Source: Escherichia phage 310Ecol104PP. Taken from it: DNA of 64,000 bases. Where the stretch lies: sequence record OR062946.1; one strand, 5' to 3'. The notes beneath the pieces are model-generated. The model was not told where the DNA came from. It was given only the letters and a program-made list of their open reading frames with translations, and made no database searches. The position numbers were made by a program, and so were the translations under genes. This document shows, piece after piece, positions 56,913 through 57,368 of the stretch (positions within the stretch are counted from its first letter, which is position 1; each line of letters opens with the position of its first letter).

Positions 56913-57368
56913 TTATTTTAAATCATCTGCCCAATCGAGTTTAAGAGGCTCTTTGTATTCACGGTCAAGTACAACCGGAATTTGTACATCACCGCTAAAT
57001 GATAAGGGCCCAACATTATAAGACAATGTTATATGCGGTGTGTAATCATCAAAATCATGTGTAGCACCTAGTGCTCGCGCATACATGTGTCGACAGCGCA
57101 GATATTCAGAATCTAGCACAAGTACAAGAGTCGATCCATCTTGTGTTTTCCATACTTCTAAATGTCCAGAAGAAGCTACTTCAAAACTTCCACTCGATGG
57201 AACATATGGAACATTTACTCTTGAATAACATATGGTCGAATGAATTTTTTCTCTAGGAACTGGATTAGGAACACGTAAAGAGCGCTGGAGTTCTTCCAGC
57301 GCATCAAGTGTTAATTCTGAAAACTTAGCTGCTACATAAAGACCCGTTGAAAAGTCTTTAAATTCCAT
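56913..57368 (-). CDS. 57B: gp57B, 2H phosphoesterase (Acb1-type anti-CBASS nuclease)
   Basis: 151 aa; two H-x-(T/S) motifs HSTICY and HITLSY; upstream of 57A. Confidence 0.8.

Follow-up and report, generated by a model that had tools for sequence, protein, structure and literature searches.

The gene on the minus strand at 56913..57368 of the DNA stretch analyzed here (64,000 nucleotides of Escherichia phage 310Ecol104PP, sequence record OR062946.1, in the following termed the window) is almost certainly, judged by its similarity to characterized proteins, an intact copy of acb1 (gene 57B in T4) carried by a T4-like Tequatrovirus, encoding a small 2H phosphoesterase that would stop CBASS effector activation. 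The identity of Acb1 is already known and there is nothing new in this copy, which carries little weight as a discovery, as Acb1 is the founding anti-CBASS nuclease and has been characterized both structurally and genetically.

Identity of the gene and its product

An open reading frame with two H-x-(T/S) motifs had been proposed at this place by a sequence-only reading, and both parts of that proposal proved right. The interval corresponds to exactly one ATG-to-TAA open reading frame on the minus strand, and its translation of 151 amino acids contains HSTICY (H43) and HITLSY (H112), which are the only H-x-[ST] motifs of the product. Two plus-strand ORFs lying within acb1 (57071-57256 and 57085-57228) were unsupported and are taken as chance ORFs. 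The features of the gene are as follows, with the numbering of the T4 protein and of the published structure (PMC9117128) given in brackets.

56913..57368, minus strand: acb1 (T4 gene 57B) coding sequence, 151 codons plus the TAA stop
57234..57242, minus strand: first catalytic H-x-T motif, H43-S44-T45 (H44/T46), from computed position and family alignment
57027..57035, minus strand: second catalytic H-x-T motif, H112-I113-T114 (H113/T115), within PHITLSYN, from computed position and family alignment
56916..56939, minus strand: C-terminal lid, amino acids 144-151 (145-152), including W146 (W147), in sequence the same as that of T4

In a Pfam search, the protein matched PF23474 ('Anti-CBASS protein Acb1') with E=2.6e-60 and 202.7 bits (cut-off 27), its residues 8-149 being aligned with positions 1-144 of the 144 positions of the profile, i.e., over the full length. 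The sole other Pfam match was a sub-threshold one to 2_5_RNA_ligase2 (PF13563) at residues 80-122 (E=0.11, 13 bits versus a cut-off of 27). The NCBIfam search, for which no model of the Acb1 family exists, gave no match. A search of solved structures led to Acb1 of Erwinia phage FBB1 (7T26/7T27) with E=4e-62 and 68% identity, and the alignment with 7T26 over query residues 8-148 was nearly gap-free, with one single-residue gap. Direct comparison with the T4 reference region showed that the protein is identical to residues 2-152 of T4 gp57B (NP_049750.1) at 151 of 151 positions. At the DNA level, six codons of acb1 differ from T4 by a total of seven nucleotides, all of these differences being synonymous and none non-synonymous. 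Homologues were detected by tblastn in 1470 of 50,697 phage records, 498 of them with at least 99% identity.

T4 gene 57B, uncharacterized at that time, was named Acb1 when a 3'3'-cGAMP-degrading activity was traced to its product by activity-guided fractionation (Hobbs et al., 2022; PMC9117128). Given this identification, the equation of T4 57B with Acb1, which the sequence-only reading had made, is correct. Acb1 has a 2H phosphoesterase fold with a U-shaped pocket, which accommodates cyclic di- and trinucleotides only, and, at the C-terminus, a flexible lid formed by residues 145-152 (PMC9117128). Y12, W74, F107, and W147 stack the bases and E141 contacts the adenine N6, whereas H44, T46, H113, and T115 form an HxT/HxT tetrad for metal-independent acid-base catalysis via a cyclic-phosphate intermediate; catalytic activity is lost in an H44A/H113A mutant (PMC9117128). 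The numbering of the window protein is that of T4 minus one, and the counterparts of all these residues are present, namely Y11, H43, T45, W73, F106, H112, T114, E140, and W146. The C-terminal eight residues forming the lid are the same as in T4, and by homology the protein is predicted to adopt the compact 2H phosphoesterase fold.

The conservation of these residues was inspected in an alignment of 11 sequences comprising the window protein, the T4 and FBB1 proteins, and eight relatives from phages of Escherichia, Klebsiella, Serratia, Aeromonas, Acinetobacter, and Vibrio, with 39% to 100% identity to the window protein. Y11, H43, T45, H112, and T114 were invariant down to 39% identity, E140 and W146 were nearly so, and aromatic residues occupied positions 73 and 106 in all but one sequence each (C and L, respectively). 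The first motif aligns with HTT of FBB1 Acb1 and with HVT of 9Q2G, while the variant chain 9Q2Y has A there. As H43 and H112 correspond to the catalytic H44 and H113 of T4, align with the histidines of FBB1 Acb1 and do not vary within the 11 sequences, the assignment to Acb1, which the sequence-only reading had made dependent on such an alignment, stands.

The two motifs might have arisen by chance in an unrelated ORF or in one without function. The motif is short, occurring at a background frequency of 0.28 per 151 amino acids in the 75 window ORFs of at least 100 amino acids, and two or more copies are found in 3 of the 53 window ORFs of 100-220 amino acids (about 6%, the acb1 ORF counted among them). 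The motif pair by itself is therefore weak evidence, weakly above chance, and the Acb1 assignment relies on the full-length homology and not on the motif pair alone. The high-scoring Acb1 homology over the full length, the restriction of the differences from T4 to synonymous ones and the invariance of the motif residues throughout the family leave a chance origin with a negligible probability, and we consider it refuted by the Pfam, 7T26, and T4 comparisons.

Another alternative is that the protein works on RNA ends, e.g., in tRNA repair, as a LigT-like 2'-5' RNA ligase or an RNA 2',3'-cyclic phosphodiesterase. It shares the 2H superfamily with these enzymes, shows the faint 2_5_RNA_ligase2 match mentioned above, is encoded about 2 kb from a tRNA cluster, and bears the label 'RNA ligase' in the RefSeq record of T4 57B and in phrog_755. 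However, the 13 bits of that match are far under the cut-off, as opposed to the 202.7 bits for Acb1, and cyclic oligonucleotides are cleaved by the identical protein of T4, which is required for CBASS evasion and has a binding pocket suited to cyclic di- and trinucleotides only (PMC9117128); ligase activity is absent from the literature consulted on Acb1. A LigT or RNA-ligase identity is thus extremely improbable and was rejected because of the sub-threshold Pfam score and the contrary experimental literature. The 'RNA ligase' labels appear to stem from weak 2H-superfamily similarity and to have been superseded by experiments. In public records, members of the Acb1 family are variously labeled 'RNA ligase' (T4 RefSeq NC_000866, phrog_755), 'RNA 2',3'-cyclic phosphodiesterase' or 'hypothetical protein'. 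The practical value of the present assignment lies in annotation, since most public records still read 'hypothetical protein' or 'RNA ligase' and this phage can be labeled as carrying intact acb1 and acb2 (see below).

Proposed action on CBASS signals

For T4 Acb1, the substrate range and a two-step cleavage 3' of adenosine have been shown (PMC9117128). The enzyme blocks activation of Cap4, Cap5, and CapV and is both necessary and sufficient for CBASS evasion, and plating of T4 Δacb1 on active CBASS drops more than 300-fold (PMC9117128). Cleavage and CBASS rescue by the protein of this phage are carried over from the sequence-identical T4 protein. The product would accordingly bind adenosine-containing 3'-5'-linked cyclic di- and trinucleotides (3'3'-cGAMP, cUA, cAAA, cAAG) in the U-shaped pocket, over which the C-terminal lid would close. 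The HxT/HxT tetrad would then cut 3' of adenosine by metal-independent acid-base catalysis, giving first a 2',3'-cyclic phosphate intermediate and then a linear product. Destruction of the second messenger made by the host CD-NTase would keep the CBASS effectors inactive, so that abortive infection would fail and the phage could replicate.

From the literature, the phage is predicted to resist CBASS signaling by A-containing 3'-5' cyclic nucleotides, and acb1 is predicted to give no protection against signaling by cGG or 3'2'-cGAMP (PMC9117128). In type II Panoptes, cA3 keeps a CARF-TM effector inactive, Acb1-expressing Tevenvirinae are restricted and escapers mutate acb1 (PMC13577387); the phage is therefore likely to be sensitive to this system. 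For restriction of T4 by type I Panoptes, acb2 is needed and acb1 is not (PMC12657218). In the public record of Escherichia phage BYEP02 (OR757454.1, 89372-89904), acb1 is out of frame owing to a tandem duplication of 77 bp (codons 23-48) and is listed as two hypothetical CDSs. The duplication could be an artefact of the assembly or else a natural disruption of acb1 of the sort reported for Panoptes escapers and phage Bas43.

A further physiological substrate of Acb1 besides the CBASS signals, such as 2',3'-cyclic-phosphate RNA ends or other host nucleotide messengers, is very unlikely. If there were one, this second role might explain why acb1 and 57A have stayed tightly linked even in very distant Straboviridae, namely phages of Aeromonas, Acinetobacter, and Vibrio.

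Locus, start junction and expression

By sequence, the window belongs to a T4-like Tequatrovirus, and 6 kb of DNA around acb1 had their best match, with 97.6% identity, in vB_EcoM_G4498. The gene order is T4-like, with gene 4, gene 2, gene 3, gene 1, 57A, acb1, internal-protein genes, trna.4, trna.3, trna.2, and the tRNA cluster following each other. T4 57B likewise adjoins an internal-protein (anti-defence) locus (PMC9117128). The features upstream of acb1 are listed below.

59846-60298: gene 4, in T4 gene order
59022-59846: gene 2, in T4 gene order
58385-58915: gene 3, in T4 gene order
57610-58335: gene 1, in T4 gene order
57966..57973, minus strand: octamer TATAAATA (T4 late-promoter consensus) within gene 1, located upstream of 57A (by 356 nt) and of acb1 (by 598 nt)
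57368..57610, minus strand: 57A, tail-fibre assembly chaperone, 98.75% identical to T4 gp57A
57366..57370, minus strand: TAATG junction with a one-base overlap of the 57A stop (TAA) and the acb1 start (ATG), from the sequence and the T4 alignment

The start junction differs from that of T4, which reads TGATGATGG as compared to TAATGG in the window. T4 has two tandem start codons (ATGATG), the first of which overlaps the TGA stop of 57A, and 152 annotated amino acids, whereas the window has ATAATG at 57366-57371 with a TAA stop of 57A, keeps only the second ATG and encodes 151 amino acids. Five of the eight relatives examined have the GAATAATG (TAATG) junction, and the extra N-terminal methionine of T4 is not conserved in the relatives. 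The arrangement in the window is thus the common one, and it is the second ATG of T4 that is conserved as the start. This suggests that the annotated first methionine of T4 may not be the native start. The TAATG overlap points to translational coupling of acb1 to 57A.

With respect to transcription, TATAAATA is found at the exactly corresponding position in gene 1 of T4 (7006-7013 of the T4 reference region), and this positional conservation makes it a candidate late promoter for 57A-acb1. A late promoter at this place agrees with Acb1 activity setting in at about 15 min (PMC9117128) and with the 'predominantly middle/late' expression reported for 57B/acb1 (PMC13478754). Across the window, TATAAATA was not enriched (10 occurrences versus 10.6 expected), and a consensus scan of 55800-59100 revealed no intrinsic terminators; for these reasons, we infer rather than observe a transcription unit in which acb1 is co-transcribed with 57A. 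Promoter-like sites in 55800-59100 (15 versus a shuffled expectation of 11.6) were not above expectation. An Rfam search of 52000-59000 returned 10 tRNAs and nothing else.

These tRNA genes form a cluster at 54025-54853 on the minus strand (Arg, Asn, Tyr, Met(CAT), Thr, Ser, Pro, Gly, Leu, and Gln), compared to eight in T4. The additional ones are Asn and Tyr, and where T4 has an annotated tRNA-Ile, the window carries a tRNA with the anticodon CAT. The segB homing-endonuclease gene is absent.

Other genes of the window and comparison with known systems

The window had also been described as dense in counter-defence functions, which is broadly right: dmd, 61.2, vs.4, sp, imm, and internal-protein genes are all present. 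The part of the description that needs qualification concerns sp, imm, and the internal proteins. The genes sp and imm serve superinfection exclusion and are not known to act in counter-defence against host immunity. Among the internal proteins, T4 ipI is the one with a demonstrated anti-restriction role (anti-GmrSD). The genes in question are the following.

3097-3387: sp, 99% identical to that of T4
3710-3889: dmd, 100% identical to that of T4
8711-8959: imm, 97.6% identical to that of T4
2474-3094, minus strand: 61.2, 96% identical to that of T4, Pfam AdfA 'Anti-DarT factor A' with E=4e-135
45125..45391, minus strand: vs.4/acb2, cyclic-nucleotide sponge, 95.5% identical to T4 Vs.4, Pfam PF24729 Acb2_Tad1_hairpin with E=8e-20
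56570-56842, 56201-56509, and 55899-56135, minus strand: three small internal-protein ORFs directly downstream of acb1

The vs.4/acb2 gene is the second, independent anti-CBASS gene of this phage and is physically unlinked to acb1. Both genes are intact, and T4 likewise has the nuclease as well as the sponge. The three internal-protein ORFs match the PHROG internal head/virion families 7673, 2667, and 8765, and their N-termini (MKTYQEFIAEA, MKTFKEFINEA, and MKTYQKFIVEA) resemble the capsid-targeting sequences (CTS) of T4. No homologue of T4 ipI was found in the window by tblastn at 1e-3, and the three genes adjacent to acb1 belong to other families; a counter-defence role of these genes is an assumption. 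A promoter-like site, TTTAC(A/T)-17-TA(C/T)TAT, precedes two of the three ORFs and also trna.4.

Several further differences from T4 were noted. An extra ORF of 98 amino acids (2113-2406, minus strand), which has no counterpart at that position in T4, is located between 61.2 and 61.1. Its identity to 61.2 is 35% over the C-terminal half of the latter; it matches phrog_4122 and may be a truncated paralogue. A homologue of the T4 beta-glucosyltransferase was not found in the window; at the position of beta-gt, between uvsX and gene 42 (6975-7823, minus strand), there is an ORF of 282 amino acids with a match to Pfam TAGT (TET-associated glycosyltransferase, E=1e-9). The alpha-gt gene is present (98%), and this arrangement suggests a T2/T6-like rather than a T4-like DNA glucosylation pattern. 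The gp56 protein is 70% identical to that of T4 (differences noted in 129-1941), and the gap between gene 56 and gene 61 is about 270 bp, which means that dam is absent from its T4 position. The tk.4 Macro-domain protein (42963-43442) is 57% identical to that of T4. The ipII/ipIII region holds an internal-protein gene of 157 amino acids (46982-47455, phrog_3155), and tblastn matched neither denV nor ipIII in the window.

In comparison with known systems, T4 Acb1 shares with the window protein the same 151 residues, the same neighbours (gene 1 and 57A upstream, internal-protein genes downstream) and the place of TATAAATA. It differs in the annotated length, 152 amino acids in T4 versus 151 in the window, and the downstream internal-protein genes of the window are not T4 ipI. 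FBB1 Acb1 (7T26, 7T27) is 68% identical, belongs to the same length class and has the HxT/HxT tetrad as well as Y12, W147, and E141, but W74 is replaced by F and F107 by Y, both conservative aromatic exchanges, and one residue is inserted after the QDG/QSG turn. The divergent Acb1 9Q2G/9Q2Y aligns with the window protein in the 2H core and in the two H-x-T motifs, but the match is marginal (E=0.004), and this longer protein (165 amino acids) is unaligned in its C-terminal region.

Outside the Acb1 family, LigT and the 2'-5' RNA ligases (PF13563) likewise belong to the 2H superfamily and have two H-x-T/S motifs; unlike these, the T4 protein has cyclic oligonucleotides and not RNA ends as substrate, and the window protein scores 13 bits against a family cut-off of 27. 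Acb2 (T4 Vs.4) also depletes CBASS second messengers, but the signal is sequestered instead of being hydrolyzed, and the fold (PF24729) is unrelated. The cGAMP phosphodiesterase of avian poxviruses, likened here by description, is a 2H phosphodiesterase that has the 2H fold and the HxT tetrad, degrades cGAMP and can replace acb1 in T4 (PMC13577500). In contrast to Acb1 with its C-terminal lid, this enzyme has an N-terminal helical lid, and it is thought to be of independent origin (PMC13577500).
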